From Escherichia coli 042 (GTDB lineage: Bacteria; Pseudomonadota; Gammaproteobacteria; Enterobacterales; Enterobacteriaceae): 64,000 nt of DNA. Shown here piece by piece: positions 15,774 through 42,511 of this stretch. Below the pieces are notes generated by a model. It saw only the letters and a list, made by a program, of their open reading frames with translations. It was not told the DNA's origin and did no database searches. The DNA lies in assembly GCF_000027125.1 (NCBI RefSeq), contig NC_017626.1, one strand, 5' to 3'. Each line of letters opens with the position of its first letter. The stretch's first letter is position 1. The translations under genes were made by a program, and so were the position numbers.

Positions 15774-15804
15774 AATTTAGTACCTATAGTGAGCAAAATT
15801 AGAA

Positions 15805-15828
15805 AAAACATAGCAACAGCTATGTTTT
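15805..15828 (-). promoter_or_regulatory. MntR-type operator upstream of sitA
   Basis: Palindrome AAAACATAGC-AACA-GCTATGTTTT, 32-55 bp upstream of the sitA start; matches the recalled E. coli MntR box (AAACATAGC...GCTATGTTT). Confidence 0.6.
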
Positions 15829-15849
15829 ATAGCATAAGCCATGCAAAAT

Positions 15850-15868
15850 GAAAATGATTATCATTAGC
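15850..15868 (-). promoter_or_regulatory. Fur box-like site upstream of sitA
   Basis: GAAAATGATTATCATTAGC resembles the Fur consensus GATAATGATAATCATTATC, ~80-95 bp upstream of sitA. Confidence 0.5.
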
Positions 15869-15981
15869 GGTTGTGGGCCCAACACAGGGATTAGGTTGTT
15901 TCCTGCTGGCGATGTGGTATTGAGGAAAAAATTAGGGCAGCTATTAGGCTTTGAAATGACTTTATGAGGAGAATTGTTGAT

Positions 15982-16032
15982 GGCAAAAATGGGGCAAAGC
16001 GCTGCAAAAGGGGCAAAAAAGGGGCAAAAAAA
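15982..16032 (+). repeat. short tandem GGGGCAAA(A) repeats (4-5 copies)
   Basis: GGCAAAAA, GGGGCAAAG, GGGGCAAAAAA, GGGGCAAAAAAA in tandem; overlap a 22-codon Lys-rich mini-ORF (15980-16048) with a GAGGA SD 9 nt upstream. Confidence 0.4.
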
Positions 16033-16331
16033 GAGTGGGTTATCGTAGCTTATTGTTGTCGCTGATGATGTTTAACACATTGAAAAATAAGTAAAATACT
16101 TATGAGTCAGAGAGTTGTGATTTTTGCCCTTACTTGTTCAGATTGTATTGTTCTTTCTTACTAATTTCTTGATTTTGCGACATTTAAAAGCGACTCAATT
16201 CGTTATATGGCATCAGAAGAGTATGCGTCATGCCGGAAAGCCCAGCATAAGAAATCTGATATAAAAACTGTGGCGTGTATGGTACGGATTAGAGGGGAAA
16301 ATGTCAGCACATTTGCGAAATGAATCAAAAA

Positions 16332-16351
16332 GCCCGCAGCAATGTGCGGGC
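16332..16351 (-). terminator. hairpin immediately downstream of uspF
   Basis: GCCCGCA-CATTGC-TGCGGGC on the minus strand followed by TTTTTGATT. Confidence 0.5.
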
Positions 16352-16358
16352 GTTAGTG

Positions 16359-16874
<516 letters not shown>

Positions 16875-16933
16875 TTAGATCAAAGGAGGAAGAATAAGCA
16901 GAAAAAGCCCGCCATAACAGCGGGCAGGAGGAT

Positions 16934-18067
16934 TTAGAACTGATAAACCAGACCTAAAGCGACAATATCATCGGTAGAGATGCCGTTGGCAGCGTAGAAG
17001 CTGTCATCTTCATCCAACAGGTTGATTTTATAGTCAACATAGGTGGACATGTTTTTATTGAAATAGTAAGTCGCGCCAACATCGGCGTATTTAACCAGAT
17101 CTTTATCATCAACACCTGCCGGGTTGTCTGCACCACCGGCAGCGTGCAGGTCACGGCCTTTAGACATCAGGAAAGAGACTGCCGGACGCAGACCAAAATC
17201 AAACTGGTACTGTGCAGTAACTTCAAAGTTCTGGGTTTTGTTTGCAACAGCATAATCGCTGTCGCCAAACGGGGTCATATTACGCGTTTCTGAATACATG
17301 GTTGCCAGGTAAATATTGTTAGCATCGTATTTTAGCCCAGCAGTCCACGCGTCTGCTTTATCACCACCCGCCGCAGTATGGTTAACCTGGTCATTGGTGC
17401 GGTCAGAAGAGGTGTATGCCGCACCAGCGCTAAAGCCCATGCCTAAATCATATGTTGTGGAAAGACCCCAGCCGTCACCGTTTTCATGGCGAACATCACG
17501 TCCGTTGTTGGTGCCTTCCTGACCATTACTGGCACCTTCGTTGTTACCTTGATACTGCACCGCGAAGTTCAGACCATTTACCAGACCGAAGAAATCAGTA
17601 TTACGATAAGTCGCGACGCCATTGGCACGACCAGTCATAAAGTTGTCTGCATTGGTATAAGAGTCACCGCCAAATTCAGGCAGCATATCGGTCCAGCCTT
17701 CGATGTCGTACATTACGCCATAATTACGTCCGTAATCGAAAGAACCGTAATCTGCAAATTTCAATCCGGCAAATGCCAGACGGGTCCATGACTGGTTTTT
17801 TGAGGATTCAGTGTTGTTTGCCTGAATATTGTATTCCCATTGACCGTAGCCAGTGAGTTGATCGTTAATTTGCGTTTCGCCTTTAAAACCCAGACGCGCA
17901 TAGCTCTGGTCGCCATCTTTCGCTGAATTATCAGAAAAATAATGCAGGCCATCAACTTTGCCATACAGATCTAATTTGTTGCCGTCTTTATTATAAACTT
18001 CGGCTGCATGTGCAGCACCTGCGGCGAGCAGGGCAGGAATTAAAAGTGCCAGTACTTTGCTTTTCAT
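16934..18067 (-). CDS. ompN: outer membrane porin OmpN
   Basis: 377 aa general porin (OmpC/F family); signal peptide; C-terminal ...LVYQF. Confidence 0.85.
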
Positions 18068-18294
18068 TGAATAAATCCTTTAGTTATTTTATTTGCCTTT
18101 TATCCCCATTTCGGGGAGTGAAAACATCCTAAAGGAGATGTTCAGTTAGCCGATAAATATCATTTGTTACGCCTTAAGTAAAACCTTAATCAAATAATTC
18201 TTCTGAAATGATAATAAGTCTGGTGAATGTATTGGAGATAATACATACAAAATAAAAATTATACTTTTAATTTGCTATACGTTATTCTGCGCGG

Positions 18295-18404
18295 GTTATA
18301 TGCCTTTATTGTCACAGATTTTATTTTCTGTTGGGCCATTGCATTGCCACTGATTTTCCAACATATAAAAAGACAAGCCCGAACAGTCGTTCGGGCTTTT
18401 TTTT
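18295..18404 (+). ncRNA. micC: MicC small regulatory RNA
   Basis: Sequence GTTATATGCCTTTATTGTCACAG...GCCCGAACAGTCGTTCGGGCTTTTTTTT matches the recalled MicC; terminator hairpin plus T-run; located between ompN and ydbK as in K-12. Confidence 0.8.
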
Positions 18405-18432
18405 AGAATTGGATAATTCTTATCCAGAGCAT

Positions 18433-21400
18433 TTAATCGGTGTTGCTTTTTTCCGCTTTTCCGGCCATTTGTGCCAGGAAGTCATAGCGTTTTTGCAAAT
18501 CAGCTGCAGCATCTTTCCATAACTGTTCTGCCACTTCTGGCTGCTGCGAATTCAGACGACGGAAACGTTGCTCATGCAGTAACGTTTCTTCCAGTGCTTC
18601 TGACGGCGGGCGTGAATCCAGTGCCAGCGGCAGTTTGCCTTCATCGGCTCGACGTGGATCGAAGCGATATAGCGGCCAGAAGCCGGTGGCAGTGAGTTGG
18701 CGCATCTGGTCGTGACTGAGTGCCAGATCGTAACCATGCTCTTCACACGGGCTATAAGCGATGATCAGCGATGGTCCCGGATACGCTTCTGCTTCCTGAA
18801 TCGCTTTCACTGTCTGGTTCAGCTGTGCACCAAGAGAAATTTGCGCCACATAAACATGACCGTACATCATCATACTGACGCCAAGATCTTTACGCGCTTT
18901 ACGTTTGCCATGCTCGCCAAACTTAGTTACTGCACCCAGCGGTGTCGCTTTCGACGCCTGACCACCGGTGTTGGAATAGCATTGCGTATCCAGCACCAGA
19001 ATGTTGACGTTTTCCGTCAAACTCAATACATGATCCAGACCGCCAAAGCCGATATCGTAAGCCCAGCCGTCGCCACCAATCAGCCAGATTGATTTTTCCA
19101 CCAGTGCATCTGCGTCACGTAGCAGTTCATGTGCTTCGGCAACATCTTTGAGTTGCTGGCGTAAAGCTGCAACCTGTTCACGACGAACCTCTGGCGTGGC
19201 GTCTGATTTCAACGCAGTCAGTAATTCCGCCGGGATTTTATCGGCAAATTGATCCAGCAGACGCAGCACGCGGACACGGTGTTGATCGACCGTCAGGCGG
19301 AAACCAAGGCCAAATTCGGCGTTATCTTCAAACAGCGAGTTCGCCCATGCCGGTCCACGACCGTTGGCATCGGTAGTATACGGTGTAGAGGGCAGGTTAC
19401 CGCCATAAATTGAAGAACATCCGGTGGCGTTAGCGATCAACATTCGGTCGCCATAGAGCTGAGTCAGCAATTTAATATACGGCGTCTCGCCACAACCGGA
19501 GCAAGCACCTGAATATTCAAACAGCGGTGTAATCAGCTGCGATGTACGAATATCAATACGTTCCAGTTTGCTACGGTCGATTTCTGGGAGGTTGAGGAAG
19601 AAATCGTAATTGATTTTCTCTTCTTCGACATGTTCCAGGCGCGACATCATATTGATGGCTTTGATCTCTGGATTCTGACGGTCTTTCGCCGGGCAAACTT
19701 CGACGCACAGGTTACAGCCGGTGCAATCTTCCGGTGCCACCTGCAAGACATATTTCTGCCCGCGCATATCACGCGATTTCACATCCAGCGAATGCAGGCT
19801 GGCAGGGGCGTTTTCCATCGCTTCAGGCGGTACCACTTTTGCGCGAATAGCGGAGTGTGGGCAAGCAGCGACGCAGTGGTTACATTGGGTACAGAGTTCC
19901 TCTTTCCAGATGGGGATCTCTTCGGCGATATTGCGTTTTTCCCAGCGCGTAGTGCCCATCGGCCAGGTGCCGTCTGGCGGCAGCGCCGAAACGGGGAGGG
20001 CATCACCAAGCCCGGCGAGCATCGCCGCGGTTACGGTTTTCACGAAATCAGGGGCGGCATCGGAAACCACTGGCGGTCGATTGGCGCTGTGCGGATTTAC
20101 TGGTTGCAGCGGAACTTCTTCTACGGATTCACGTGCCAGCGCCAGAGCCTGCCAGTTGCGTTCCACCAGATCCTGACCTTTGCTACTGTAACTTTTGGCA
20201 ATCGCACCCTGCAATTCTGCGAGGGCGCTATCGCCAGGCAGAATTTGCGTAAGATGGAAAAAAGCCATCTGCATGACGGTATTAATACGGGCTGCCAGGC
20301 CACATTCGCGGGCGATTTTCGCCGCGTTAATCACATAGAAGCGCGCTTTTTTCTGGTTTAACACGGCCTGAACTTCCTGCGGCAAGCGCGACCATACTTC
20401 ATCTGCGCTGTACGGCGTGTTGAGCAGGAAAATGCCGCCAGGTTTTAAACGTTCAGCCATCTGATATTTATCGATAAACTGCAACTGGTGGCAGCCAACA
20501 AAATCAGCCTGGGAAATGAGATAAGCGGAACGAATCGGCTGCTCACTCACGCGAAGGTGAGAAACCGTCAGGCCGCCCGCCTTTTTGGAGTCGTAAACAA
20601 AATAGCCCTGTGCGTACCACGGCGTGGAATTACCGATAATCTTGATATTGTTTTTGGTCGCGGAAACGCTGCCATCACTACCAAGGCCATAAAACAAGGC
20701 TTCAAGTTTCGCCGAGTTTGGCAGGGTGTTTTCCGGCAACGGTAGTGACAGATTGGTCACATCATCATAAATACCAACCGTAAAGCGCGCTTTCGGTTTA
20801 GCCGCGTTGAGCTCGGCAAATACCGCCAGTACACAGTCCGGGCCAAATTCTTTGGATGAAAGACCATAGCGCCCACCAATGACACGGGGCAGGGTTTCGC
20901 GCTCGCCATTATTAAAGGCTTCTGCCAGTGCAGTCATCACATCCAGATAGAGCGGTTCTGCCTGGGCACCGGGTTCTTTGGTTCTGTCCAGTACCGCCAC
21001 GCTGCGTACGGATCCCGGTAGAGCTTGTAGCAAGTGTTTGGCGGAGAAGGGACGGTACAGGCGAACTTTCAGCACGCCGACTTTTTCGCCACGGGTTAGC
21101 AATTCATCAACCACTTCTTCACAGGTGCCAATGGCAGAGCCCATCAGGATAATCACCCGTTCCGCTTGCGGATGCCCGTAATACTCAAACGGCTGATACT
21201 GACGACCTGTCGCGGCAGCGAAATCATTCATCGCCTGTTCAACATGGTCGTAAACTGCGTTGTACCACGGGTTGGTGGCTTCACGTGACTGGAAGTAGGT
21301 GTCCGGGTTAGCCGAGGTACCGCGAATCACCGGATGCTCCGGATTCAGCGCGCGGGCGCGATGAGCATCAATTTCGGCCTGCGGCATCAGTTCCAGAATC

Positions 21401-21957
21401 GTGTCATCGGCCAGCGGGACAATTTTATTGATTTCGTGGGACGTGCGGAAACCATCAAAGAAATGAATAAATGGAACGCGGCTTTTCAGCGTCGCGATGT
21501 GCGAAATGAGAGCAAAGTCTTGCGCTTCCTGGACGTTAGCCGCACACAACATCGCGCAACCCGTCTGGCGCACCGCCATAACGTCGGAATGATCGCCAAA
21601 AATAGAGAGTGCATGTGTGGCAACGGTACGTGCCGCTACATGCAGGACAAATGGCGTCAGTTCGCCTGCCAGTTTGTACAGCGTCGGGATCATCAGCAAC
21701 AAACCCTGCGATGACGTAAACGATGTTGAAAGGGCACCCGTCTGCAAAGCGCCATGCACGGTAGCGATAGCCCCCGCTTCCGACTGCATTTCAACCACGC
21801 GTGGTGTGTCTCCCCAAACGTTCTTCAAGCCGTTTCCGGCCCATGCATCAGCCTGTTCTGCCATCGTGGAACTGGGGGTAATAGGGTAGATGGCGATAAC
21901 TTCACTGGTGCGAAACGCCACCGAAGCAACCGCGCCATTACCGTCAATAGTAATCAT
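18433..21957 (-). CDS. ydbK: pyruvate:flavodoxin/ferredoxin oxidoreductase (PFOR, NifJ-like)
   Basis: 1174 aa; two 4Fe-4S Cys clusters (CTQCNHCVAACP, CTGCNLCVEVCP); TPP-binding region. Confidence 0.9.
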   Translation of the reverse strand: MITIDGNGAVASVAFRTSEVIAIYPITPSSTMAEQADAWAGNGLKNVWGDTPRVVEMQSEAGAIATVHGALQTGALSTSFTSSQGLLLMIPTLYKLAGELTPFVLHVAARTVATHALSIFGDHSDVMAVRQTGCAMLCAANVQEAQDFALISHIATLKSRVPFIHFFDGFRTSHEINKIVPLADDTILELMPQAEIDAHRARALNPEHPVIRGTSANPDTYFQSREATNPWYNAVYDHVEQAMNDFAAATGRQYQPFEYYGHPQAERVIILMGSAIGTCEEVVDELLTRGEKVGVLKVRLYRPFSAKHLLQALPGSVRSVAVLDRTKEPGAQAEPLYLDVMTALAEAFNNGERETLPRVIGGRYGLSSKEFGPDCVLAVFAELNAAKPKARFTVGIYDDVTNLSLPLPENTLPNSAKLEALFYGLGSDGSVSATKNNIKIIGNSTPWYAQGYFVYDSKKAGGLTVSHLRVSEQPIRSAYLISQADFVGCHQLQFIDKYQMAERLKPGGIFLLNTPYSADEVWSRLPQEVQAVLNQKKARFYVINAAKIARECGLAARINTVMQMAFFHLTQILPGDSALAELQGAIAKSYSSKGQDLVERNWQALALARESVEEVPLQPVNPHSANRPPVVSDAAPDFVKTVTAAMLAGLGDALPVSALPPDGTWPMGTTRWEKRNIAEEIPIWKEELCTQCNHCVAACPHSAIRAKVVPPEAMENAPASLHSLDVKSRDMRGQKYVLQVAPEDCTGCNLCVEVCPAKDRQNPEIKAINMMSRLEHVEEEKINYDFFLNLPEIDRSKLERIDIRTSQLITPLFEYSGACSGCGETPYIKLLTQLYGDRMLIANATGCSSIYGGNLPSTPYTTDANGRGPAWANSLFEDNAEFGLGFRLTVDQHRVRVLRLLDQFADKIPAELLTALKSDATPEVRREQVAALRQQLKDVAEAHELLRDADALVEKSIWLIGGDGWAYDIGFGGLDHVLSLTENVNILVLDTQCYSNTGGQASKATPLGAVTKFGEHGKRKARKDLGVSMMMYGHVYVAQISLGAQLNQTVKAIQEAEAYPGPSLIIAYSPCEEHGYDLALSHDQMRQLTATGFWPLYRFDPRRADEGKLPLALDSRPPSEALEETLLHEQRFRRLNSQQPEVAEQLWKDAAADLQKRYDFLAQMAGKAEKSNTD

Positions 21958-22230
21958 ATGACACCCTTACATTGCGCAAATGAGGGGCGCACGAAATTGC
22001 TGCGCGCCCAGTAGTTATCTTTCAATTTTAGCAAATGGCTTTCTTCTGCATTTTCGCTTTTGTGTCCCCCACATCAGCGTAATGAATGTTTTGATCAAAC
22101 AGAGGGCAAAAAAATAGCCATAAAAAAGTAAAAATGCGGGGCAACGCGCAGGACAGCTCTCGACGTCGCCCTCTGTGCTGCCTATTATTTATGGCGGTGT
22201 CGTTTGGCTTGAAGATCAGAGGAAGAAAAG

Positions 22231-22497
22231 ATGCGAGCAGCGTTTTGGGTAGGGTGTGCCGCTTTATTGTTGTCGGCGTGTAGTAGTGAACCTGTTCAGC
22301 AGGCGACTGCGGCGCACGTAGCGCCAGGTTTAAAAGCGTCGATGTCCAGTAGTGGAGAAGCAAATTGTGCAATGATCGGCGGTTCGCTTTCTGTTGCCCG
22401 TCAACTGGATGGTACGGCGATTGGGATGTGTGCATTACCCAACGGCAAACGCTGTAGTGAACAGTCACTTGCCGCCGGGAGCTGTGGCAGCTATTAA
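22231..22497 (+). CDS. ydbJ: small lipoprotein (DUF333 family)
   Basis: 88 aa, lipobox LLSAC; K-12 synteny. Confidence 0.65.
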   Translation: MRAAFWVGCAALLLSACSSEPVQQATAAHVAPGLKASMSSSGEANCAMIGGSLSVARQLDGTAIGMCALPNGKRCSEQSLAAGSCGSY

Positions 22498-22916
22498 TTC
22501 ATTAAATCCGCCAGCTTATAAGTTAATGTCTGTTTCGCGGTCGCCAGCGTTAACTGGTTCGCGGTCAGATCCACTTGTGCACCTTCTTTCAGCATTTCGC
22601 TAATGGTGTTATCGAGTTCATTAAGCTGCGGGTTAGCGCACATCATACGGGTCATTGCCAGCCCTTTGGCTGTTAGTTCACCATTAGACAGTTTGCCTTC
22701 ACCGCTAAAGCGGTTACACATGCTGCCGGAAATCATCATCTTTTCACCAAAGCTGATTTCTGGCGGATTTTTATCGCTGGTCACGGGCTTACCGTTTACG
22801 CTTTCCAGCACAAAGCGATGACGCTGTAGCTGTTCTGGGGTTACAGCAATTTTGTCATTACTTACACATCCCGCCATCAGCAGGCTTAGCGCAACAAACG
22901 CGGCTACTTTCTTCAT
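22494..22916 (-). CDS. hslJ: heat-shock lipoprotein HslJ (META domain)
   Basis: 140 aa from MKKVAAFVALSLLMAGC (lipobox); synteny next to ldhA. Confidence 0.75.
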   Translation of the reverse strand: MKKVAAFVALSLLMAGCVSNDKIAVTPEQLQRHRFVLESVNGKPVTSDKNPPEISFGEKMMISGSMCNRFSGEGKLSNGELTAKGLAMTRMMCANPQLNELDNTISEMLKEGAQVDLTANQLTLATAKQTLTYKLADLMN

Positions 22917-23026
22917 TGTGGTTCTCAATTACAGTTTCTGACTCAGGACTATTTTAAGAATAGAGGATGAAAGGTCATTGGGGATTATCTGAATCAGCTC
23001 CCCTGGAATGCAGGGGAGCGGCAAGA

Positions 23027-24016
23027 TTAAACCAGTTCGTTCGGGCAGGTTTCGCCTTTTTCCAGATTGCTTAAGTTTTGCAGCGTAGTCTGAGAAATAC
23101 TGGTCAGTGCTTCTGCTGTCAGGAATGCCTGGTGCCCGGTAAACAGCACGTTGTGGCAGGCAGACAGACGACGGAATACGTCATCCTGGATCACGTCGTT
23201 GGATTTGTCTTCAAAGAACAGATCGCGTTCGTTCTCATACACGTCCATACCCAACGAACCAATTTTCTGATTTTTCAGCGCTTCAATTGCCGCCTGAGAA
23301 TCAATCAATGCACCGCGACTGGTATTGACGATCATCACGCCATTTTTCATCTGATCGAAGGCGGCTTCGTTCAACAGATGGTAGTTTTCCGGTGTCAGCG
23401 GGCAGTGCAGAGAGATAACGTCTGATTCAGAGAACAGGGTTGGCAGATCGACATACTCCACACCGAGTTCCAGTGCCGCCGCACTTGGATACGGATCGAA
23501 CGCCAGCAGACGCATACCAAAACCTTTCAGAATGCGCAGCATCGCCACACCGATTTTACCGGTACCGATAACGCCTGCCGTTTTGCCATACATAGTAAAG
23601 CCGGTCAGACCTTCCAGAGAGAAGTTGGCGTCACGAGTACGCTGATACGCGCGATGAATACGGCGGTTCAGCGTCATCATCATACCGATGGCGTGTTCAG
23701 CAACGGCTTCTGGATCATAGGCTGGAACACGGACTACTTTCAGCCCCAGTTCTTTTGCCGCGTCAAGGTCGACGTTATTAAAACCGGCACAGCGCAGGGC
23801 GATATATTTAACGCCGTGCTTTTTCAGCTCTTCCAGCACCGGGCGGCTGCCGTCATCGTTTACGAAAATACATACCGCTTCGCAGCCATTGGCGGTTTTA
23901 GCGGTTTTTTCCGTCAGCAGAAAGTCAAAAAATTCCAGCTCAAAGCCAAAGGACTCGTTCACCTGTTGCAGGTACTTCTTGTCGTACTGTTTTGTGCTAT
24001 AAACGGCGAGTTTCAT
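23027..24016 (-). CDS. ldhA: fermentative D-lactate dehydrogenase (NAD-dependent 2-hydroxyacid dehydrogenase)
   Basis: 329 aa; NAD-binding GxGxxG (GVIGTGKIG); matches recalled LdhA. Confidence 0.9.
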   Translation of the reverse strand: MKLAVYSTKQYDKKYLQQVNESFGFELEFFDFLLTEKTAKTANGCEAVCIFVNDDGSRPVLEELKKHGVKYIALRCAGFNNVDLDAAKELGLKVVRVPAYDPEAVAEHAIGMMMTLNRRIHRAYQRTRDANFSLEGLTGFTMYGKTAGVIGTGKIGVAMLRILKGFGMRLLAFDPYPSAAALELGVEYVDLPTLFSESDVISLHCPLTPENYHLLNEAAFDQMKNGVMIVNTSRGALIDSQAAIEALKNQKIGSLGMDVYENERDLFFEDKSNDVIQDDVFRRLSACHNVLFTGHQAFLTAEALTSISQTTLQNLSNLEKGETCPNELV

Positions 24017-24223
24017 AAGACTTTCTCCAGTGATGTTGAATCACATTTAAGCTACTAAAAATATTTTACAAAATTTCAAATATAATTGAAAGCTATGGCG
24101 ATATTGAAAAATTCATCAACAACTATGCTTAGTGTAGGCGCAACCTTCAACTGAACGGTTAAACATGCCACAATACCCGTATTGAATGCTTAATTTTTCG
24201 CTAAATCAGGATATTAACTACCC

Positions 24224-26863
24224 ATGCTGGGTAAATATAAAGCCGTTCTCGCGCTGTTATTACTGATTATTCTTGTGCCGTTGACGCTGCTGATGACGCT
24301 CGGCTTGTGGGTTCCCACGCTGGCGGGCATCTGGCTACCGCTCGGGACACGTATTGCATTAGATGAAAGCCCACGCATTACGCGTAAAGGTTTAATCATT
24401 CCCGATCTCCGTTATCTGGTGGGAGATTGTCAGCTTGCGCATATCACCAACGCCAGCCTTTCACATCCCAGCCGCTGGTTATTGAACGTCGGCACGGTAG
24501 AATTTGATTCTGCTTGTCTGGCGAAATTGCCGCAGACGGAGCAATCGCCAGCTGCTCCAAAAACCCTCGCGCAGTGGCAGTCCATGCTGCCTAACACCTG
24601 GATCAATATCGATAAACTGATTTTTTCTCCCTGGCAGGAATGGCAGGGAAAACTCTCTCTCGCATTAACCTCTGATATTCAGCAACTGCGTTATCAGGGC
24701 GAAAAAGTTAAATTTCAAGGCCAGCTGAAAGGGCAACAACTTACAGTCAGCGAACTGGATGTCGTCGCGTTTGAAAATCAGCCGCCGGTTAAACTGGTGG
24801 GGGAATTTACTATGCCGCTCGTGCCGGATGGACTTCCTGTAAGTGGGCATGCTACTGCGACGTTAAACTTGCCGCAGGAACCGTCACTGGTGGATGCAGA
24901 GCTGGACTGGCAGGAAAATAGCGGGCAATTGATTGTGCTGGCACGGGATAACGGCGATCCGTTGCTCGATTTGCCGTGGCAAATTACTCGTCAACAATTG
25001 ACCCTAAGCGATGGTCGCTGGAGCTGGCCGTATGCAGGTTTTCCTTTGAGTGGCCGACTGGGTGTCAAAGTCGACAACTGGCAGGCAGGGCTCGAGAACG
25101 CTCTGGTCAGCGGACGACTTAGTGTGCTGACCCAGGGGCAAGCGGGTAAAGGCAACGCGGTGCTAAATTTTGGCCCAGGAAAATTAAGCATGGATAACAG
25201 CCAGCTGCCTATGCAACTGACCGGTGAAGCGAAACAGGCGGACCTCATTTTATATGCCCGTTTACCTGCGCAGCTAAGTGGAAGTCTGACTGACCCAACG
25301 CTGGCCTTTGAGCCAGGCGCGTTATTACGTTCGAAGGGAAGAGTCATCGATTCGCTGGACATCGATGAAATCCGCTGGCCTTTAGCGGGTGTAAAAGTCA
25401 CCCAACGTGGTGTTGACGGACGTTTGCAGGCCATTTTGCAGGCGCATGAAAATGAACTGGGCGATTTCGTGCTGCATATGGATGGGCTGGCGAATGATTT
25501 TCTCCCTGACGCTGGCCGCTGGCAGTGGCGCTACTGGGGAAAAGGCAGTTTTACACCGATGAATGCCACCTGGGATGTTGCAGGAAAAGGTGAGTGGCAT
25601 GACAGCACGATTACGCTGACCGATCTCTCCACCGGTTTCGACCAGTTACAATACGGTACGATGACGGTAGAAAAGCCGCGATTAATTCTCGACAAGCCCG
25701 TCGTCTGGGTACGTGACGCACAGCATCCCTCCTTTAGCGGCGCGCTGTCACTGGACGCCGGGCAAACGCTGTTCACTGGCGGCAGTGTGTTACCGCCATC
25801 AACCTTAAAATTTAGCGTCGATGGACGCGATCCGACGTATTTCCTATATAAAGGCGATTTACATGCTGGTGAGATTGGCCCGGTTCGGGTAAATGGTCGC
25901 TGGGACGGTATTCGTCTGCGCGGTAACGCCTGGTGGCCTAAACAATCACTGACCGTATTCCAGCCGCTGGTGCCACCCGACTGGAAGATGAACTTACGCG
26001 ATGGCGAACTGTATGCTCAGGTCGCATTTTCTGCTGCGCCTGAACAAGGATTCCGCGCGGGAGGGCACGGTGTGTTGAAAGGCGGTAGTGCCTGGATGCC
26101 AGATAATCAGGTTAACGGTGTCGATTTTGTCCTGCCTTTCCGTTTTGCCGATGGAGCCTGGCATCTGGGGACTCGCGGCCCCGTTACGTTGCGAATTGCC
26201 GAAGTGATTAATCTGGTGACAGCGAAAAATATTACGGCTGATTTGCAAGGGCGCTATCCGTGGACAGAAGAAGAACCATTGTTGTTGACTGATGTTAGCG
26301 TCGATGTGTTAGGCGGTAACGTGCTGATGAAACAATTACGTATGCCGCAACATGACCCGGCGCTGTTGCGGCTGAATAATCTCTCATCCAGCGAACTGGT
26401 TAGCGCCGTCAATCCGAAACAATTCGCCATGTCCGGGGCATTTAGTGGTGCATTGCCGTTATGGCTAAACAACGAAAAATGGATAGTGAAAGATGGTTGG
26501 CTGGCAAATAGCGGGCCAATGACCTTGCGGCTGGATAAAGACACCGCAGATGCGGTGGTAAAAGACAATATGACTGCGGGTTCAGCAATTAACTGGTTGC
26601 GCTATATGGAAATTAGCCGTTCATCGACAAAAATTAATTTAGATAATCTCGGTTTATTAACCATGCAGGCCAACATTACAGGTACCAGTCGCGTTGATGG
26701 TAAAAGCGGTACGGTAAACCTTAATTACCATCACGAAGAGAATATTTTTACGCTGTGGCGCAGTTTACGCTTTGGCGATAATCTCCAGGCATGGTTGGAG
26801 CAGAACGCGCGTCTGCCGGGAAATGACTGTCCGCAAGGAAAAGAGTGTGAGGAAAAACAATGA
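24224..26863 (+). CDS. ydbH: large envelope protein YdbH (AsmA-like/DUF748 family)
   Basis: 879 aa with N-terminal TM anchor; followed by ynbE-ydbL as in K-12. Confidence 0.75.
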   Translation: MLGKYKAVLALLLLIILVPLTLLMTLGLWVPTLAGIWLPLGTRIALDESPRITRKGLIIPDLRYLVGDCQLAHITNASLSHPSRWLLNVGTVEFDSACLAKLPQTEQSPAAPKTLAQWQSMLPNTWINIDKLIFSPWQEWQGKLSLALTSDIQQLRYQGEKVKFQGQLKGQQLTVSELDVVAFENQPPVKLVGEFTMPLVPDGLPVSGHATATLNLPQEPSLVDAELDWQENSGQLIVLARDNGDPLLDLPWQITRQQLTLSDGRWSWPYAGFPLSGRLGVKVDNWQAGLENALVSGRLSVLTQGQAGKGNAVLNFGPGKLSMDNSQLPMQLTGEAKQADLILYARLPAQLSGSLTDPTLAFEPGALLRSKGRVIDSLDIDEIRWPLAGVKVTQRGVDGRLQAILQAHENELGDFVLHMDGLANDFLPDAGRWQWRYWGKGSFTPMNATWDVAGKGEWHDSTITLTDLSTGFDQLQYGTMTVEKPRLILDKPVVWVRDAQHPSFSGALSLDAGQTLFTGGSVLPPSTLKFSVDGRDPTYFLYKGDLHAGEIGPVRVNGRWDGIRLRGNAWWPKQSLTVFQPLVPPDWKMNLRDGELYAQVAFSAAPEQGFRAGGHGVLKGGSAWMPDNQVNGVDFVLPFRFADGAWHLGTRGPVTLRIAEVINLVTAKNITADLQGRYPWTEEEPLLLTDVSVDVLGGNVLMKQLRMPQHDPALLRLNNLSSSELVSAVNPKQFAMSGAFSGALPLWLNNEKWIVKDGWLANSGPMTLRLDKDTADAVVKDNMTAGSAINWLRYMEISRSSTKINLDNLGLLTMQANITGTSRVDGKSGTVNLNYHHEENIFTLWRSLRFGDNLQAWLEQNARLPGNDCPQGKECEEKQ

Positions 26864-27045
26864 AAATTTTACTGGCTGCGTTGACGTCATCTTTTATGCT
26901 GGTTGGCTGTACGCCTCGCATTGAAGTCGCTGCACCTAAGGAACCGATCACTATCAATATGAACGTTAAAATTGAGCATGAGATCATCATCAAGGCAGAC
27001 AAAGATGTCGAAGAGCTGCTTGAGACTCGTAGCGATCTTTTCTGA
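26860..27045 (+). CDS. ynbE: small lipoprotein YnbE
   Basis: 61 aa, lipobox LVGC; overlaps the ydbH stop. Confidence 0.65.
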   Translation: MKILLAALTSSFMLVGCTPRIEVAAPKEPITINMNVKIEHEIIIKADKDVEELLETRSDLF

Positions 27046-27049
27046 GGCG

Positions 27050-27379
27050 ATGATGAAGAAAACATTACTTCTTTGTGCGTTTCTTGTTGGGCTGGTAAGC
27101 AGCAATGTAATGGCATTGACTCTGGATGAAGCCAGAACTCAGGGGCGGGTAGGGGAAACATTTTATGGTTATCTGGTTGCGCTGAAAACAGATGCTGAAA
27201 CAGAGAAATTAGTAAACGACATTAATGCCGAACGTAAAGCGAGTTACCAACAACTGGCAAAGCAAAATAATGTCTCGGTAGATGATATCGCGAAACTCGC
27301 CGGGCAAAAGCTCGTAGCTCGGGCTAAACCGGGGGAATATGTACAAGGGATAAACGGTAAATGGGTGCGAAAATTTTAA
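27050..27379 (+). CDS. ydbL: periplasmic protein YdbL (DUF1318)
   Basis: 109 aa from MMKKTLLLCAF signal peptide; longest frame from 26972. Confidence 0.65.
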   Translation: MMKKTLLLCAFLVGLVSSNVMALTLDEARTQGRVGETFYGYLVALKTDAETEKLVNDINAERKASYQQLAKQNNVSVDDIAKLAGQKLVARAKPGEYVQGINGKWVRKF

Positions 27380-27550
27380 TAGCAAAACCGCAATATCGGG
27401 ATAACGCTACAGGAGAAGGCGATTATTCTATTTTCCGGAAACAAGGTGAATATTCAAAAATTCCTGTCAAATTGCCTTTCGCCCTGAAAAATGCATAGTC
27501 AAATATCTGTTTTAACTAATTCGCGTTGCTGTACATGCAACGCGAATTAG

Positions 27551-27784
27551 TTAGCGGAATTTACGTCGATACTCGCCTGGCGTCATCCCAAAGCGTTGAT
27601 TAAATACCGTTGAAAAATGACTCTGGTCGGAAAATCCCCAATGAAAGCCAATGCCTGCCAGTTTTTCATCATCTGCGGCATGGCGAATCGCATCTGCACA
27701 AAAATCGAGACGACGGTTACGGATATATTGCGCGACTACCAAACCTTTATCGGCAAACTTTATCAGCGCGTAGCGCCTGCTGCT
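27551..27784 (-). pseudogene. feaR: 3' remnant of an AraC-family regulator gene (feaR-like): only the C-terminal HTH region (~78 codons) remains
   Basis: Frame encodes ...IGFHWGFSDQSHFSTVFNQRFGMTPGEYRRKFR (AraC-type HTH) but is closed by a stop at 27785-27787 with no N-terminal domain; convergent with ydbL as feaR is in K-12. Confidence 0.55.
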
Positions 27785-27787
27785 TTA

Positions 27788-27910
27788 GCGTTCGTTAGTG
27801 AAAAAGGTGAAACCTCGGTCGGTGAACTGCCTGCGCCGGGAAGCCTGTATTTTCAACGTTTTGGCGGCTTGAATATTGAACAGGACGCGTTATGCCAATT
27901 TATCAGATAG
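27788..27910 (+). pseudogene. possible 3' remnant of paaX, overlapping the paaY start
   Basis: Open frame ending 27910 with no plausible start or N-terminal portion; position upstream of paaY matches K-12 paaX-paaY. I do not recall the PaaX C-terminus, so assignment is by position only. Confidence 0.3.
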
Positions 27911-28482
27911 ACGGTCTGACTCCGGTTGTGCCAGAAGAGAGTTTTGTTCATCCGACAGCGGTATTGATCGGCGATGTTATTCTCGGCAAGGGTGTTTACG
28001 TTGGGCCAAATGCCAGCCTGCGTGGCGATTTTGGTCGTATCGTGGTGAAAGATGGCGCGAACATTCAGGATAATTGCGTTATGCACGGTTTTCCCGAGCA
28101 GGATACTGTCGTGGAAGAAGATGGACATATTGGTCATAGCGCTATCCTTCACGGCTGCATTATCCGCCGCAATGCATTAGTGGGAATGAACGCGGTAGTG
28201 ATAGACGGTGCGGTGATTGGCGAGAACAGCATTGTTGGCGCATCCGCATTTGTGAAAGCCAAAGCAGAAATGCCAGCTAATTACCTGATTGTCGGCAGCC
28301 CGGCGAAAGCGATTCGTGAACTCAGTGAGCAGGAGTTGGCATGGAAAAAGCAGGGTGCGCATGAGTACCAGGTGCTGGTGACACGCTGTAAGCAGACGTT
28401 ACATCAAGTCGAGCCATTGCGGGAAGTTGAACCTGGCAGGCAGCGCCTGGTATTTGATGAGAATCTGCGACCGAAACAGTAA
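27892..28482 (+). CDS. paaY: hexapeptide-repeat protein PaaY
   Basis: 196 aa; left-handed beta-helix hexapeptide repeats; matches recalled PaaY N-terminus [11 protein letters not shown]. Confidence 0.8.
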
Positions 28483-28525
28483 CGTCCTGATGCTGGACGT
28501 TCTAATTTTTAGCATGTGATACACA

Positions 28526-28558
28526 AACCGCAACGCTGATACAGGTTGCGGTTTTTTA
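28526..28558 (+). terminator. rho-independent terminator after paaY
   Basis: ACCGCAAC...GTTGCGGT hairpin followed by TTTTTT. Confidence 0.5.
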
Positions 28559-28712
28559 TTGCCGGATGCGGTACTTGACGCGTTTTGTTTTGGTGTCTTT
28601 CAGGGCAATAGAGCAACTCATCCAGTAATCTTGTTTACGCCTTCGCATTATTTATCTCTTTTCGTTTCTATACTGATTTTTCTTAATCCGTTTTATTACA
28701 GGGCAGGGTGCG

Positions 28713-29573
28713 ATGAGCAACAACACATTTACTCTCGGTACAAAATCCGTTAACCGTCTTGGTTATGGCGCGATGCAACTGGCAGGCCCTGGGGTTTTTG
28801 GCCCCCCAAGAGATCGCCACGTTGCTATAACCGTGCTGCGTGAGGCGCTGGCATTGGGTGTCAATCACATTGATACCAGCGACTTTTATGGTCCGCACGT
28901 CACCAATCAGATTATCCGCGAAGCGCTTTATCCTTACTCTGACGATCTGACAATTGTCACTAAAATTGGTGCGCGGCGTGGAGAGGACGCATCCTGGTTG
29001 CCCGCATTTTCTCCGGCAGAGCTGCAAAAAGCGGTACACGATAATCTACGTAATCTCGGCCTGGACGTACTGGATGTGGTTAACCTGCGCGTCATGATGG
29101 GGGATGGTCATGGCCCGGCGGAAGGATCGATTGAAGCCAGCCTGACCGTGCTGGCAGAGATGCAACAACAAGGCCTGGTAAAACATATTGGCCTGAGCAA
29201 CGTCACACCGACGCAGGTCGCAGAGGCGCGTAAGATTACCGAAATCGTCTGTGTGCAGAACGAATACAACATTGCTCATCGTGCTGATGACGCAATGATT
29301 GATGATTTGGCCCGCGATGGCATTGCTTACGTGCCGTTCTTCCCGCTTGGGGGCTTTACGCCGCTGCAATCCTCCACACTTTCGGATGTAGCAGCGAGCC
29401 TGGGCGCAACACCAATGCAGGTGGCGCTGGCGTGGCTGTTACAGCGTTCACCGAATATTTTGCTGATCCCAGGGACGTCTTCTGTTGCGCATTTACGGGA
29501 GAATATGGCTGCTGAAAAATTGCATCTTTCTGAGGAAGTGTTGTCTACGTTGGATGGTATTTCGCGAGAATAA
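28713..29573 (+). CDS. ydbC: aldo-keto reductase
   Basis: 286 aa AKR family; K-12 synteny. Confidence 0.8.
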   Translation: MSNNTFTLGTKSVNRLGYGAMQLAGPGVFGPPRDRHVAITVLREALALGVNHIDTSDFYGPHVTNQIIREALYPYSDDLTIVTKIGARRGEDASWLPAFSPAELQKAVHDNLRNLGLDVLDVVNLRVMMGDGHGPAEGSIEASLTVLAEMQQQGLVKHIGLSNVTPTQVAEARKITEIVCVQNEYNIAHRADDAMIDDLARDGIAYVPFFPLGGFTPLQSSTLSDVAASLGATPMQVALAWLLQRSPNILLIPGTSSVAHLRENMAAEKLHLSEEVLSTLDGISRE

Positions 29574-29630
29574 CGAATATACAAAAGGGAAAGATGCATT
29601 TCCCTTTTGTTTCTTTTTTAATGGCATGGA

Positions 29631-31937
29631 GTGCATATGTTTAAGCCCAGGATTTGCAGCTGGATAGGTTTACTTCCCCTGTTTATGCTGAGTCTTCCAG
29701 TACAGGCGGAACTTCGATGTGTTGCAAATGCAGTTGATATTGAACCATTTTTTTCTGCGGCTACCGCTGAAGATAAACAACAAGTTGAACAAGCTATCAA
29801 CAGTAGCGTGAATCTTGTCCCCTTCGGTTTATCTGCATCGGACTGGAAAGTGCATCGTGGCGATTTAGTGGTTGACGGTAATATAGAGAGTAATCAAAAA
29901 TTGATTGTTCTTGGCAATTTGACAGTCAAAGGTAATATTTCCACTTTCTCTCTTTCTAATCCATGGATTATTCTCGGTAACGTGACGGCAACGAATATAG
30001 TTACGGATTCACCACTGTTAATTACCGGTTCGATAAATGCAAGTGGACTGGTATTTATCGACTCATATTACGATAATCCGTCTACGATTAAGGGGAGTAT
30101 TAATGCGCGTGGGATATTTATCAATGACATAATTGCACCTGTTGTTGTGTCTTCGACAAATAGTGAATTCATGGTCCGTGCGGGAGACAAAAATGACACT
30201 GAAAATGTCAAAAAAGCGCTGACGATAATAAATCCTGATGCATATTATTGGGGCCTAATAAATGATGAAGATGCTCTGAAAGAAATTTTTAAGCGAAGCA
30301 ATATTCGCATAGCAGGGAATGTCTGTAATCAGATGAAAAAAGAAGCGCTGTTTCGCCCTAAGCCTTCACCTGAATTAGTGCAGGAATTGCAAATGCTGGA
30401 TGAAGGCAAAGTTGCTGCATTTGAAGGGCGAGACATTGCGACATTTGATCTTGCCATAATGCGAACTCTCCCAAGGCTTAAAGGAATTTCAGCTAACCTA
30501 CGCAAACAACTTATTAATAGCAATGATGAACAAACGATTGAAAGTATGGCGAGATATATGCCTGACAATGAGATTCTGGAGTTGACCGATCAGCAATTGG
30601 GTTACCAGCCTGTGGTTCTGGGGTTGCTCAACCGTGAACCGCTCTCTGTCGAAATAATGACGCGAATTAGCCATCTACCTGATGGTGCCGGTCCGTTGAA
30701 TCTTGCGCTACGTGAAAATCTCCCTCTGGATATCGTCATGACTCTGGCGAAAAGAGATTGGGTCATTGAGGGGCTTTATAAAGATGCATGGTTATTGCCC
30801 GAATCCATTATAGATGGCTATATCCGCAGTGATGATCCCACAATTCGTCAGGTCGGTGCTGGAGGACAACTCACCTACAATCAGGCAATGCAGTTGGCGA
30901 AAGATTCATCAAAAAATGTTGTCACAAACTTAGCGTTCAAGCTGGCAGAGATGAAACACCATGGTCAATTGTTGCGGATGACACCACAAGAGAGTGACAA
31001 AATAGCAGTATATTTATACCAAAAATTCGAGAATGACGATGATCTAATAGGTACGTTATTTTTAGCGTTGCCAGATAACTTACAGTTTAATTTTGTTAAA
31101 AGGATGGAGAAAAAATCCCCTGCCTACTTTTGCTGTCGGGATATGCAGATAATTCACTCTGACGCTGCTTTACAACGGTTATTGACACGTTTCAACGATC
31201 CTGAGGGGTGGAGTAATTTGGCGAAAAATCAGTATCTGAGCACGTCGATGAAACAAAAAATTTGGCAACGTGCTTTATCGCATCGGAAAAATAATCCGAA
31301 AGCAGATTCTGCAGCATATGAAACCAGCGCTGATATGATTTTGTCTGAGCTGATTAGCCACGGTGAAGTTGATGACCAGATGCTATTAAATGCCACCTCT
31401 CTGATACGTTCGGAAGGCTGGGACTTTTTAGAGAGTGCATTAGTTAGTTGGGATAATTTACCCGCTGTTGTCCTCAAGGAATTACAGCAAAATATGCCAC
31501 GCAATGATATTTGGGCGAAGTTTTTTCTGAGGCAGGAAAACAGCTCTCGTGCGCAGGTTAACGAAGCGTTACGTGTTTATTATGCACTTGACCCCGATGC
31601 ATTAGCACAACTGGATAAACTGGCAAAACAACCGGATCGTATATGGTGGAGTACACTGGCGAAAAGCAATCTCACATTTTTCAAGTTCGGCGCACTTAAC
31701 AACCACCACACACCGCCTGCAGTACTGGCGGCAGAAATTGATCCCGAGTGGTGGATTGTGGCGATGAATAATCCCCGTTTTCCAGTTGATATATTAAAGG
31801 CGAGGCTGAAACGTGATCCTTTGCTGGCGTTAGAGCTTGTTAACCCTGAACTGGATTTAGTTCGGCAGCTGGCGCTTAACGGTAAGACGCGCGCAATACG
31901 GGAACAAGCGATGAGAAAACTTGATGAGTTGTATTGA
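29631..31937 (+). CDS. ydbD: uncharacterised protein YdbD
   Basis: 768 aa with signal peptide; K-12 synteny. Confidence 0.7.
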   Translation: MHMFKPRICSWIGLLPLFMLSLPVQAELRCVANAVDIEPFFSAATAEDKQQVEQAINSSVNLVPFGLSASDWKVHRGDLVVDGNIESNQKLIVLGNLTVKGNISTFSLSNPWIILGNVTATNIVTDSPLLITGSINASGLVFIDSYYDNPSTIKGSINARGIFINDIIAPVVVSSTNSEFMVRAGDKNDTENVKKALTIINPDAYYWGLINDEDALKEIFKRSNIRIAGNVCNQMKKEALFRPKPSPELVQELQMLDEGKVAAFEGRDIATFDLAIMRTLPRLKGISANLRKQLINSNDEQTIESMARYMPDNEILELTDQQLGYQPVVLGLLNREPLSVEIMTRISHLPDGAGPLNLALRENLPLDIVMTLAKRDWVIEGLYKDAWLLPESIIDGYIRSDDPTIRQVGAGGQLTYNQAMQLAKDSSKNVVTNLAFKLAEMKHHGQLLRMTPQESDKIAVYLYQKFENDDDLIGTLFLALPDNLQFNFVKRMEKKSPAYFCCRDMQIIHSDAALQRLLTRFNDPEGWSNLAKNQYLSTSMKQKIWQRALSHRKNNPKADSAAYETSADMILSELISHGEVDDQMLLNATSLIRSEGWDFLESALVSWDNLPAVVLKELQQNMPRNDIWAKFFLRQENSSRAQVNEALRVYYALDPDALAQLDKLAKQPDRIWWSTLAKSNLTFFKFGALNNHHTPPAVLAAEIDPEWWIVAMNNPRFPVDILKARLKRDPLLALELVNPELDLVRQLALNGKTRAIREQAMRKLDELY

Positions 31938-32107
31938 ATAACAGCGTAATAATTTTTAACCACTTGATTTATTGGGGATAATCATTCCTGACGGTGAGTC
32001 CCCAATACCTTGATATATTCTGAATTTTTAATGAAGCGGCGTGTTACGATATCTCCGTCAGGGGAATTGATGCACCATAGCGCAAACCGAATTATCAAGG
32101 ATTGATA

Positions 32108-32713
32108 ATGACGCTCTACCAGATAAAACCGCTCTTTCAGTCGCTGTTAAGGCCGACGATGTTTTGGCTTAATAAGCACCATGTTACAGCGAATCACATC
32201 ACTCTTGCTGCACTGGCACTTTCTCTTCTTAGCGGATTGCTGTTGATGTTGGTGGCACAACCCATCCTCTTTTTGCTATTGCCTATCGTGCTTTTTATCC
32301 GTATGGCGCTCAATGCGCTGGATGGCATGATGGCGCGTGAGTGCAATCAGCAAACACATCTTGGGGCGATTTTGAATGAAACAGGCGATGTTATTTCCGA
32401 TATTGCGCTTTATTTACCGTTTTTATTTTTACCGGAAAGTAACGCATCACTCGTAATACTCATGTTATTTTGCACCATATTGACTGAGTTTTGCGGTTTA
32501 CTCGCGCAGACGATTAACGGTATTCGCAGTTATGCCGGTCCATTTGGCAAAAGCGATCGCGCGTTAATATTTGGTCTGTGGGGTCTGGCCATTGCCATTT
32601 ATCCACAGTGGATGCAATGGAATAATCTTTTATGGGGCATTGCTTCAATTCTGCTTCTCTGGACTGCGATTAATCGTTGTCGGAGTGTGCTTTTTATGAG
32701 TGCAGAAAGATAA
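32108..32713 (+). CDS. ynbA: CDP-alcohol phosphatidyltransferase family protein
   Basis: 201 aa; motif DG..AR...G...D...D; membrane protein; first gene of ynbABCD. Confidence 0.8.
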   Translation: MTLYQIKPLFQSLLRPTMFWLNKHHVTANHITLAALALSLLSGLLLMLVAQPILFLLLPIVLFIRMALNALDGMMARECNQQTHLGAILNETGDVISDIALYLPFLFLPESNASLVILMLFCTILTEFCGLLAQTINGIRSYAGPFGKSDRALIFGLWGLAIAIYPQWMQWNNLLWGIASILLLWTAINRCRSVLFMSAER

Positions 32714-32853
32714 TGCTGGAAAAATCTCTGGCAACACTTTTCGCGTTGTTAATTTTAGCAACGCTGATAAACCGTTTTCTGATATGGCGGTTACCGGAGA
32801 GAAAAGGGGGTGAGGTTACATTACGTATTCGTACCTGGTGGGGCATCGTCATT

Positions 32854-32862
32854 TGTTTTTCA
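32854..32862. repeat. IS1 target-site duplication, left copy (TGTTTTTCA)
   Basis: Identical 9-mer directly flanks both IS1 ends. Confidence 0.9.
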
Positions 32863-32877
32863 GGTAATGACTCCAAC

Positions 32878-33255
32878 TTATTGATAGTGTTTTATGTTCA
32901 GATAATGCCCGATGACTTTGTCATGCAGCTCCACCGATTTTGAGAACGACAGCGACTTCCGTCCCAGCCGTGCCAGGTGCTGCCTCAGATTCAGGTTATG
33001 CCGCTCAATTCGCTGCGTATATCGCTTGCTGATTACGTGCAGCTTTCCCTTCAGGCGGGATTCATACAGCGGCCAGCCATCCGTCATCCATATCACCACG
33101 TCAAAGGGTGACAGCAGGCTCATAAGACGCCCCAGCGTCGCCATCGTGCGTTCACCGAATACGTGCGCAACAACCGTCTTCCGGAGACTGTCATACGCGT
33201 AAAACAGCCAGCGCTGGCGCGATTTAGCCCCGACATAGCCCCACTGTTCGTCCAT
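32878..33255 (-). CDS. insB: IS1 InsB (made as the InsAB' transposase by -1 frameshift)
   Basis: 125 aa from first Met; matches recalled IS1 InsB (...[18 protein letters not shown]). Confidence 0.85.
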
Positions 33256-33299
33256 TTCCGCGCAGACGATGACGTCACTGCCCGGCTGTATGCGCGAGG

Positions 33300-33575
33300 T
33301 TACCGACTGCGGCCTGAGTTTTTTAAGTGACGTAAAATCGTGTTGAGGCCAACGCCCATAATGCGGGCAGTTGCCCGGCAGCCAACGCCATTCATGGCCA
33401 TATCAATGATTTTCTGGTGCGTACCGGGTTGAGAAGCGGTGTAAGTGAACTGCAGTTGCCATGTTTTACGGCAGTGAGAGCAGAGATAGCGCTGATGTCC
33501 GGCGGTGCTTTTGCCGTTACGCACCACTCCGTCAGTAGCTGAACAGGAGGGACAGCTGATAGAAACAGAAGCCAC
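33300..33575 (-). CDS. insA: IS1 InsA (transposition inhibitor / N-terminal part of transposase)
   Basis: 91 aa [23 protein letters not shown]... zinc-finger/HTH protein typical of IS1. Confidence 0.9.
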
Positions 33576-33630
33576 TGGAGCACCTCAAAAACACCATCAT
33601 ACACTAAATCAGTAAGTTGGCAGCATCACC

Positions 33631-33639
33631 TGTTTTTCA
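33631..33639. repeat. IS1 target-site duplication, right copy (TGTTTTTCA)
   Basis: Identical to 32854-32862. Confidence 0.9.
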
Positions 33640-34401: not shown

Positions 34402-37465
<3,064 letters not shown>

Positions 37466-37518
37466 GCGGATTGAGATGTGGACTGAATATCTACAGTCCA
37501 CATCAAGATCGTGTCCGC

Positions 37519-38133
<615 letters not shown>

Positions 38134-38324
38134 TTATAGATGTTTGAATGGGCGATGCCCCGTTGCTTGTTGACACTTTATTCACAATCCTGCCACAGAG
38201 ATAGCGCAATAAATCGAAGCCTATGTTCGAATTTATTGAACAACGCATAGAAAGCCGCGATGTGGTACTCTATATCTATCATTTAAAAGAAAATTAATCA
38301 GGCAGCCTACTGCCCACTAACGTT

Positions 38325-42227: not shown

Positions 42228-42253
42228 CCCTGCTATTTGCCTGATAAATCTCA

Positions 42254-42286
42254 AACCCGGTAAGCATTTAGCGCCGGGTTTTTTCT
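42254..42286 (+). terminator. rho-independent terminator after hrpA
   Basis: AACCCGG...CCGGGTT hairpin followed by TTTTTTCTTT. Confidence 0.5.
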
Positions 42287-42372
42287 TTATGAATTCTGAA
42301 AAATAGCAAGGGCGGTACTATTTTACATAAGTTACATTCATACTCTGCCCATGGTAAACAGGACGTATTGCA

Positions 42373-42507: not shown

Positions 42508-42511
42508 TAGT

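Follow-up and report, generated by a model that had tools for sequence, protein, structure and literature searches.

A deletion scar with feaR and paaX remnants in place of the feaB-tynA-paa cluster in Escherichia coli 042

In Escherichia coli K-12 strain MG1655, the genes for phenylethylamine and phenylacetate catabolism lie within the order ydbH, ynbE, ydbL, feaR (minus strand), feaB, tynA (minus strand), paaZ (minus strand), paaA-K, paaX, paaY, ynbG, ydbA, pdxI, ydbD, with ydbA interrupted by IS2 and IS30. In the 64,000-nucleotide stretch of E. coli 042 DNA analysed here (the window), the order around this locus is ldhA, ydbH, ynbE, ydbL, an interval without a full-length gene, paaY, pdxI (= ydbC) and ydbD. 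Was the catabolic cluster once present in this lineage and then deleted, or was it never there, and what does the interval in its place record of the event? A preliminary description had proposed that a deletion of roughly 15-20 kb joined the 3' end of feaR to the 3' end of paaX, citing the K-12 order ydbL-feaR-feaB-tynA-paaZ-paaA-K-paaX-paaY-ydbA-ydbC, which agrees with the MG1655 record.

Remnants of feaR and paaX and the extent of the deletion

The region at 27200-28800 of the window was compared by blastn with a K-12 reference (MG1655 1,443,000-1,476,000, labelled L002), which returned three collinear blocks. The left block pairs 27200-27758 with MG1655 1,446,027-1,446,585 (97.1% over 559 nt), the middle block pairs 27756-28483 with 1,464,334-1,465,062 (98.2% over 729 nt, one gap), and the third pairs 28497-28800 with 1,474,005-1,474,308 (95.7%). 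The identities of 97.1% and 98.2% at the two flanks indicate that the matches to feaR and paaX are not due to chance. Base-by-base alignment to K-12 showed that 17,752 bp of MG1655 (1,446,586-1,464,337) are absent from the window, a length within the predicted range. The missing DNA comprises the 5' part of feaR (698 nt), feaB, tynA, paaZ, paaA-K and most of paaX (799 nt), affecting 16 of the 17 genes of the feaRB-tynA-paaZA-KXY locus, and the alignment matches the proposed loss of the feaB-tynA-paa cluster between the two 3' ends. The features at the scar are as follows.

27551-27758, minus strand: feaR 3' remnant, a pseudogene fragment (blastn, translation, NCBIfam, PGAP)
27756-27761, no strand: deletion junction, breakpoint at 27758/27759 (base-level comparison with K-12)
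27759-27910, plus strand: paaX 3' remnant, 152 nt (blastn from MG1655 1,464,338, translation, NCBIfam, PGAP)
27617-27910, plus strand: chimeric 97-codon ORF (mechanical ORF list, frame translation)
27892-28482, plus strand: paaY, intact, 196 aa (full-length ORF, NCBIfam, K-12 comparison)

The two remnants abut directly, with 0 nt between them. The feaR remnant consists of the stop codon (27551-27553), 68 codons (27554-27757) and one nucleotide of codon 233, and corresponds to residues 234-301 of FeaR, a protein of about 301 aa in full length; 67 of the 68 residues are identical to K-12, the exception being a single K-to-N change. FeaR is an AraC/XylS-family activator of tynA and feaB. The remnant covers the second helix-turn-helix of the AraC domain and has no start codon, promoter, N-terminal sensing domain or first helix-turn-helix. 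The NCBIfam FeaR equivalog model NF007243 matches it at positions 236-303 of 303 (E=5e-35) with 121 bits, below the curated cut-off of 199 for the full-length protein, and the next-best model, RamA, scores 44 bits. We thus regard the remnant as a pseudogene fragment and not a functional FeaR. The minus-strand frame reads ...FADKGLVVAQYIRNRRLDFCADAIRHAADDEKLAGIGFHWGFSDQSHFSTVFNQRFGMTPGEYRRKFR followed by a stop, and its upstream limit is another stop at 27785-27787, where the preliminary description had placed it. That description had assigned the whole frame, about 78 codons, to the 3' remnant of an AraC-type regulator; the feaR identity stands, but only 68 codons belong to feaR, and the further nine, from the junction to the 27785-27787 stop ('SSRRYALIK'), are antisense paaX.

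PaaX is a GntR-type repressor of the paa operons. Its remnant keeps 152 of 951 nt, has no start codon of its own, and translates as YQRVAPAALAF...QDALCQFIR followed by a stop, which corresponds to PaaX residues 268-316 plus the stop (about 50 codons) with one E-to-D change relative to K-12. NCBIfam model TIGR02277 matches at positions 243-278 of 279 with 24 bits against a cut-off of 264.55. Since only the last ~50 residues are present, this is a fragment and not a full-length PaaX. Its last 19 nt are shared with the beginning of paaY (27892), an overlap that paaX also has in K-12. Both remnants are therefore homologous to the proposed genes by blastn, translation and NCBIfam, including the paaX assignment that had been offered as putative. 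A start-less plus-strand frame running into the paaY start, also described before, does stay open from 27614 until it meets a stop at 27908-27910; only 27759-27910 of it is paaX. In the chimeric 97-codon ORF of this frame, antisense feaR continues without a frame change into the tail of paaX; this putative ORF is a mechanical by-product of the deletion.

We also asked whether the missing genes lie elsewhere. The deleted K-12 DNA has no copy elsewhere in the 64-kb window by blastn, and no paa gene was found elsewhere in it. In a tblastx search with the deleted interval, the sole match in the window was at 45291-46208 (34-43% identical), which falls within aldA as annotated by PGAP in the relative NZ_AP022298 (about 44.9-46.3 kb of the window); the match is an aldehyde dehydrogenase paralogue of feaB. 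A second paa copy outside the window would be rare, given that, in a collection of 5,426 complete E. coli genomes, paaABC sits at a median of 1 and at no more than 2 places per genome, 3 of these places being plasmid-borne. Each remnant is the 3' end, lacking a start, of a gene found in full length in other genomes, which shows that the present state was derived by deletion and is not an ancestral absence. We are highly confident that the scar records one deletion in an ancestor with the full ydbL-feaR-feaB-tynA-paaZ-paaABCDEFGHIJK-paaX-paaY arrangement, and no observation speaks against a deletion.

Junction sequence and neighbouring features of the window

The junction reads GGCAAAC/TTTATC, the slash marking the breakpoint, and the corresponding K-12 sites are GGCAAACATTCGG on the left and ATCAACATTTATC on the right. 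In a longer reading, the left K-12 site runs ...TATCGGCAAAC and then ATTCGG..., the right K-12 site runs ...GTATCAAC and then ATTTATCAGCG..., and the window runs ...TATCGGCAAAC and then TTTATCAGCG.... The motif AACATT is present at both parental sites, and the joint is AAC/TT, one A short. Intact genomes among the matches listed for a 200-nt junction probe have the same alignment extents as K-12, consistent with conservation of the motif. The preliminary description had put the junction near 27785-27790; blastn and the base-level reading place it about 28 bp further left, between 27758 and 27759. A gapped BLAST reading with a 3-nt overlap and a 1-nt gap was dropped, as the base-by-base reading gives a blunt join at this position.

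The base-level reading and a repeat search revealed no filler DNA, IS end, foreign DNA or inverted-repeat ends at the junction, and the repeat search around it found short chance repeats only and no long ones. Because feaR and paaX abut directly with no IS end, the joint does not have the form of an IS-mediated deletion. The scar is best explained by illegitimate recombination in a cluster-bearing ancestor, which took out the 17,752 bp and left the last 208 nt of feaR and the last 152 nt of paaX joined tail-to-tail. A clean microhomology (slippage) join would give AACATT; the observed AAC-TT suggests either that the join was slightly imprecise or that one nucleotide was lost later, in which case the loss would have been fixed before the allele spread. 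The check for microhomology that the preliminary description called for thus finds a shared motif at both parental sites and a joint that falls one A short of a clean join.

A perfect 17-nt inverted repeat (TAACTAATTCGCGTTGC / GCAACGCGAATTAGTTA, 7-nt spacer) occupies 27513-27553, between ydbL and the feaR stop and overlapping that stop, with no clear T-run on either strand; it may be a bidirectional terminator or a hairpin for RNA stability.

Downstream of paaY, two more features were found.

28484-28505, plus strand: second scar, with ynbG and the autotransporter gene ydbA missing (blastn gap 28483-28497, side-by-side sequences)
28525-28560, plus strand: terminator-like hairpin with a 10-bp stem (AAACCGCAAC/GTTGCGGTTT) followed by a T-run (inverted repeat, sequence reading)

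The loss at the second scar corresponds to K-12 L002 22064-31005, about 8.9 kb including IS2 and IS30, and the interval is replaced by 13 nt with no blastn alignment to K-12. About 20 nt at the scar (...CTGATGCTGGACGTTCTAA) resemble the 3' end of ydbA, whose last codons in K-12 read ...GTGATGCTGAAC...ACGTTCTAA for comparison. The same paaY-pdxI arrangement without ydbA occurs in many paa-positive genomes, which separates the loss of ydbA from the feaR-paaX deletion: it is an independent deletion, and a far commoner one. The preliminary description was therefore right that ydbA is absent, but this absence is a separate event. The terminator and ydbC that it had noted directly after paaY are seen as hairpins with T-runs 3' of paaY at 28481-28501 and 28525-28554, followed by pdxI from 28713. 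The hairpin at 28525-28560 is conserved with K-12, where it follows ydbA; here it follows paaY. An Rfam scan of 26800-29000 (E<=0.1) returned no RNA family.

The closest relative of the window among the 5,426 complete genomes is KK19-02, about 98-99.2% identical. Outside the scar, NZ_AP022298 is 97-99% identical to the window, and window positions 1-16133 have no counterpart in its corresponding stretch; its annotation was used only for 16134-32862 and for collinear mapped blocks. According to the KK19-02 annotation only, tail genes of a lambdoid prophage (tape measure, tail tip J, Lom-like, tail fibres) occupy about 1-12100 of the window, and the sitABCD iron/manganese transporter, adjoining uspF, lies at about 12320-15780. 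NZ_AP022298 has ttcA, dbpA and other housekeeping genes upstream of uspF instead of the prophage and sitABCD. An IS1 copy of 768 bp at 32863-33630 splits ynbB, a CdsA-like phosphatidate cytidylyltransferase gene; its InsA/InsB-type ORFs lie on the minus strand, its terminal inverted repeats read GGTAATGAC..., and the target duplication TGTTTTTCA is at 32854-32862 and 33631-33639. The insertion is absent from KK19-02 and NZ_AP022298. At 42319-43730, short plus-strand ORFs (42458-42850, 42828-43286 and 43405-43782) begin about 65 bp past the hrpA stop, and at this site NZ_AP022298 has an SMI1/KNR4-family gene and a hypothetical gene on the opposite strand. These ORFs may form a variable group of orphan genes of the immunity type.

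Frequency of the junction and the state of paaY

The 200-nt probe centred on the junction was spanned, at a coverage of at least 80%, by 259 of the 5,426 genomes (4.8%); in the other genomes its feaR and paaX halves match separately. With longer probes, 258 genomes showed the whole feaR'-'paaX-paaY-pdxI arrangement. The paaABC genes are present in 3,147 genomes (58%) and missing from 2,279 (42%), and the feaR'-'paaX junction explains about one in nine of these paa-negative genomes.

A different feaR'-'paaY deletion was found in 564 genomes, for example NZ_CP095137.1 (Iso00225). In it, feaR is kept up to L002 3630 (a 252-nt stub) and joined within paaY at L002 21722, paaX is gone, and the last 329 nt of paaY are left, with a 4-nt overlap at the joint (L003 = NZ_CP095137.1 3252-3830). 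Like the deletion in the window, it begins in the 3' region of feaR, removes feaB-tynA-paa and leaves start-less stubs that PGAP calls pseudogenes. In contrast, its breakpoints lie 44 bp and 383 bp away from those of the feaR'-'paaX junction, paaY is truncated, and a full-length 8.6-kb ydbA is retained downstream, making it a separate event. PGAP mislabels that ydbA of NZ_CP095137.1 as 'EntS/YbdA MFS transporter'. O157:H7 has yet another configuration of the locus, in which paaY is lost.

PaaY is a hexapeptide-repeat thioesterase of the paa pathway, and in the window its gene is the sole survivor of the 17-gene locus. The protein scores 372.3 bits against NCBIfam TIGR02287 (cut-off 319.6) over positions 3-195 of 196 aa, and 191 of its 196 residues are identical to K-12 (5 differences). 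The gene has lost its K-12 context, as the 5' part of paaX, the paaX promoter and paaA-K are all deleted, and a consensus scan found no plus-strand promoter-like site between 27272 and 28044. In the literature as quoted in PMC4640556, paaX and paaY form one operon. Cut off from the paaX promoter on which it normally depends, paaY is probably silent or expressed by read-through only.

We sampled seven carriers of the junction, namely the window, STEFF_1, a strain named ST648, an O169:H41 strain, 18KM2445, C4 and 2012C-4221, and in all seven the junction is base-identical and paaY is intact. The pN/pS of paaY is 0.16 in these carriers (n=7) and 0.08 in intact strains (n=4), and private changes number 5N:6S in carriers versus 6N:20S in intact strains. 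The higher value is a faint hint of relaxed constraint, the sample of 7+4 sequences being too small to conclude.

The survival of paaY could be read differently, namely that the deletion was kept because it freed paaY as an orphan with a role outside phenylacetate catabolism, with the chimeric ORF preserving translational coupling. An undamaged paaY in seven of seven divergent carriers would fit such functional remodelling, as would a chimeric frame that stays open across the junction with its 19-nt overlap with the paaY start kept, and a carrier pN/pS well under 1. However, this pN/pS is twice that of intact strains (in a tiny sample), the consensus scan gave paaY no promoter-like plus-strand site after the ydbL region, paaY is truncated in the 564 genomes and lost in O157:H7, and a 591-bp ORF can remain open for long by chance. 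We therefore consider functional remodelling quite unlikely.

Origin of the junction and relation to known polymorphism

The junction in the 259 genomes may have arisen once or repeatedly. In the 725 nt immediately to its right, any two of the sampled carriers show at most 19 differences, as many as unrelated paa-positive strains, and carriers interleave with intact strains. STEFF_1, which has the deletion, and the paa-positive AST240 are only 3 nt apart and have the same PaaY protein accession. The window and STEFF_1 are 2.8% different over 7.4 kb and about 1% different in the kilobase around the junction. At 27300-28750 the window is 100% identical to NZ_AP022298.1 and 11 other genomes, whereas its flanks differ from NZ_AP022298 by about 1% at 16134-32862 and by 3.3% at 35233-42319; this mosaic identity around the scar is consistent with recombination tracts. 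The junction is imprecise yet identical across divergent carriers, which points to a single origin, and the divergent, interleaved flanks indicate that the allele is old and that its surroundings have been reshuffled by homologous recombination. We infer that the junction arose once, is old, and has been inherited across several lineages with its flanks recombined; homologous recombination may also have carried the loss allele from one background to another.

The alternative is a recurrent hot spot, at which the same junction would have formed many times independently in different lineages. The mutual divergence of the carriers (up to 19 of 725 nt, as among unrelated paa-positive strains) and their interleaving with intact strains could be taken in this sense, and the locus is prone to deletion, as the 564-genome feaR'-'paaY junction and the O157:H7 configurations illustrate. 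However, homologous recombination routinely reshuffles flanks in E. coli, and independent events would be expected to give a clean AACATT or varied endpoints, as in the 564-genome deletion, rather than a one-base-short junction that is base-identical in seven of seven carriers from divergent backgrounds. Recurrent formation is thus very unlikely compared with a single, old deletion.

The deletion itself could be doubted if the site had been empty from the start and K-12-type strains had gained the fea-tynA-paa block by insertion. The absence of paaABC from 42% of the complete E. coli genomes and the wording of PMC4951805, which describes the locus as 'inserted between core genes', are in line with such a primary absence. 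Insertion, however, cannot yield 3' stubs of feaR and paaX that lack a start and match the ends of the full-length genes at 97-99% identity; moreover, the stubs are oriented convergently and then co-directionally, and paaY, itself one of the cluster genes, is present. We regard primary absence as scarcely credible. An assembly artefact, with the contig collapsed or mis-joined, has nothing specific in its favour and a next to negligible probability, since the same junction is found in 259 complete genomes assembled independently from many laboratories and hosts. The single deletion in a cluster-bearing ancestor is therefore retained.

For its carriers, the deletion is expected to be a metabolic loss. 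With tynA and feaB lost and their activator FeaR truncated, a carrier would be unable to turn 2-phenylethylamine into phenylacetate, and with all catalytic paa genes gone it would be unable to degrade phenylacetate. Our prediction is that neither 2-phenylethylamine nor phenylacetate can serve this strain or the 259 junction genomes as a carbon source, and that junction carriers are without TynA, the periplasmic H2O2-producing amine oxidase. The junction GGCAAAC/TTTATC could also serve as a PCR or in-silico marker for carrier lineages, and the relevance of the scar lies mostly in strain characterisation. The scar and the other deletions illustrate that the ydbL-pdxI interval is a plastic spot of the E. 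coli chromosome, as documented before.

This documentation is at the level of genes. Goldstone et al. (2016) described feaRB-tynA-paaZA-KXY as 'a region of genomic heterogeneity' between ydbH/ynbE/ydbL and ynbC/ynbD, reaching ydbA, with partial deletions in some isolates and tynA-paaZABCDE deleted in some mastitis isolates (PMC4951805). Elovaara et al. (2015) found 28 of 28 O157:H7 and 11 of 11 neonatal-meningitis isolates negative in a tynA PCR, and a 33-kb gap in CFT073 (PMC4640556). At least three or four different events have thus removed the locus: the 259-genome junction (including ST648), the 564-genome junction, the CFT073 gap and the O157:H7 configuration. These several different deletions show that the loss recurs; convergent, pathoadaptive selection for it in several lineages of E. 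coli, as opposed to neutral decay, seems unlikely to us.

The scar is an ordinary strain-level deletion, an already known kind of event that represents an instance of the documented polymorphism and is already annotated in RefSeq. It shares with the published polymorphism the locus, the core flanks ydbH-ynbE-ydbL and ynbA-D, and the loss of the phenylethylamine/phenylacetate genes, whereas PMC4951805 and PMC4640556 work at gene level and, to our knowledge, do not single out the base-level feaR'-'paaX junction. In every relative inspected, PGAP calls both stubs pseudogenes ('incomplete; missing N-terminus'), with boundaries that correspond to window 27551-27757 and 27758-27910. Examples of these entries are listed below.

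NZ_AP022298.1: H7R48_RS11270/RS11275
NZ_CM144238.1: ACZ0NM_RS13580/RS13575
ST648: FH07_RS26435/RS11630

The RefSeq/PGAP entries are identical to the stubs of the window in sequence and fragment boundaries, but the feaR stub is named only 'helix-turn-helix domain-containing protein' and the deletion itself is unannotated. Short-homology (illegitimate) deletions are known in enterobacterial chromosomes. The scar resembles them in the shared AACATT at its breakpoints and in having no mobile element at the joint, and it differs from a clean microhomology deletion in that its joint is one base short.
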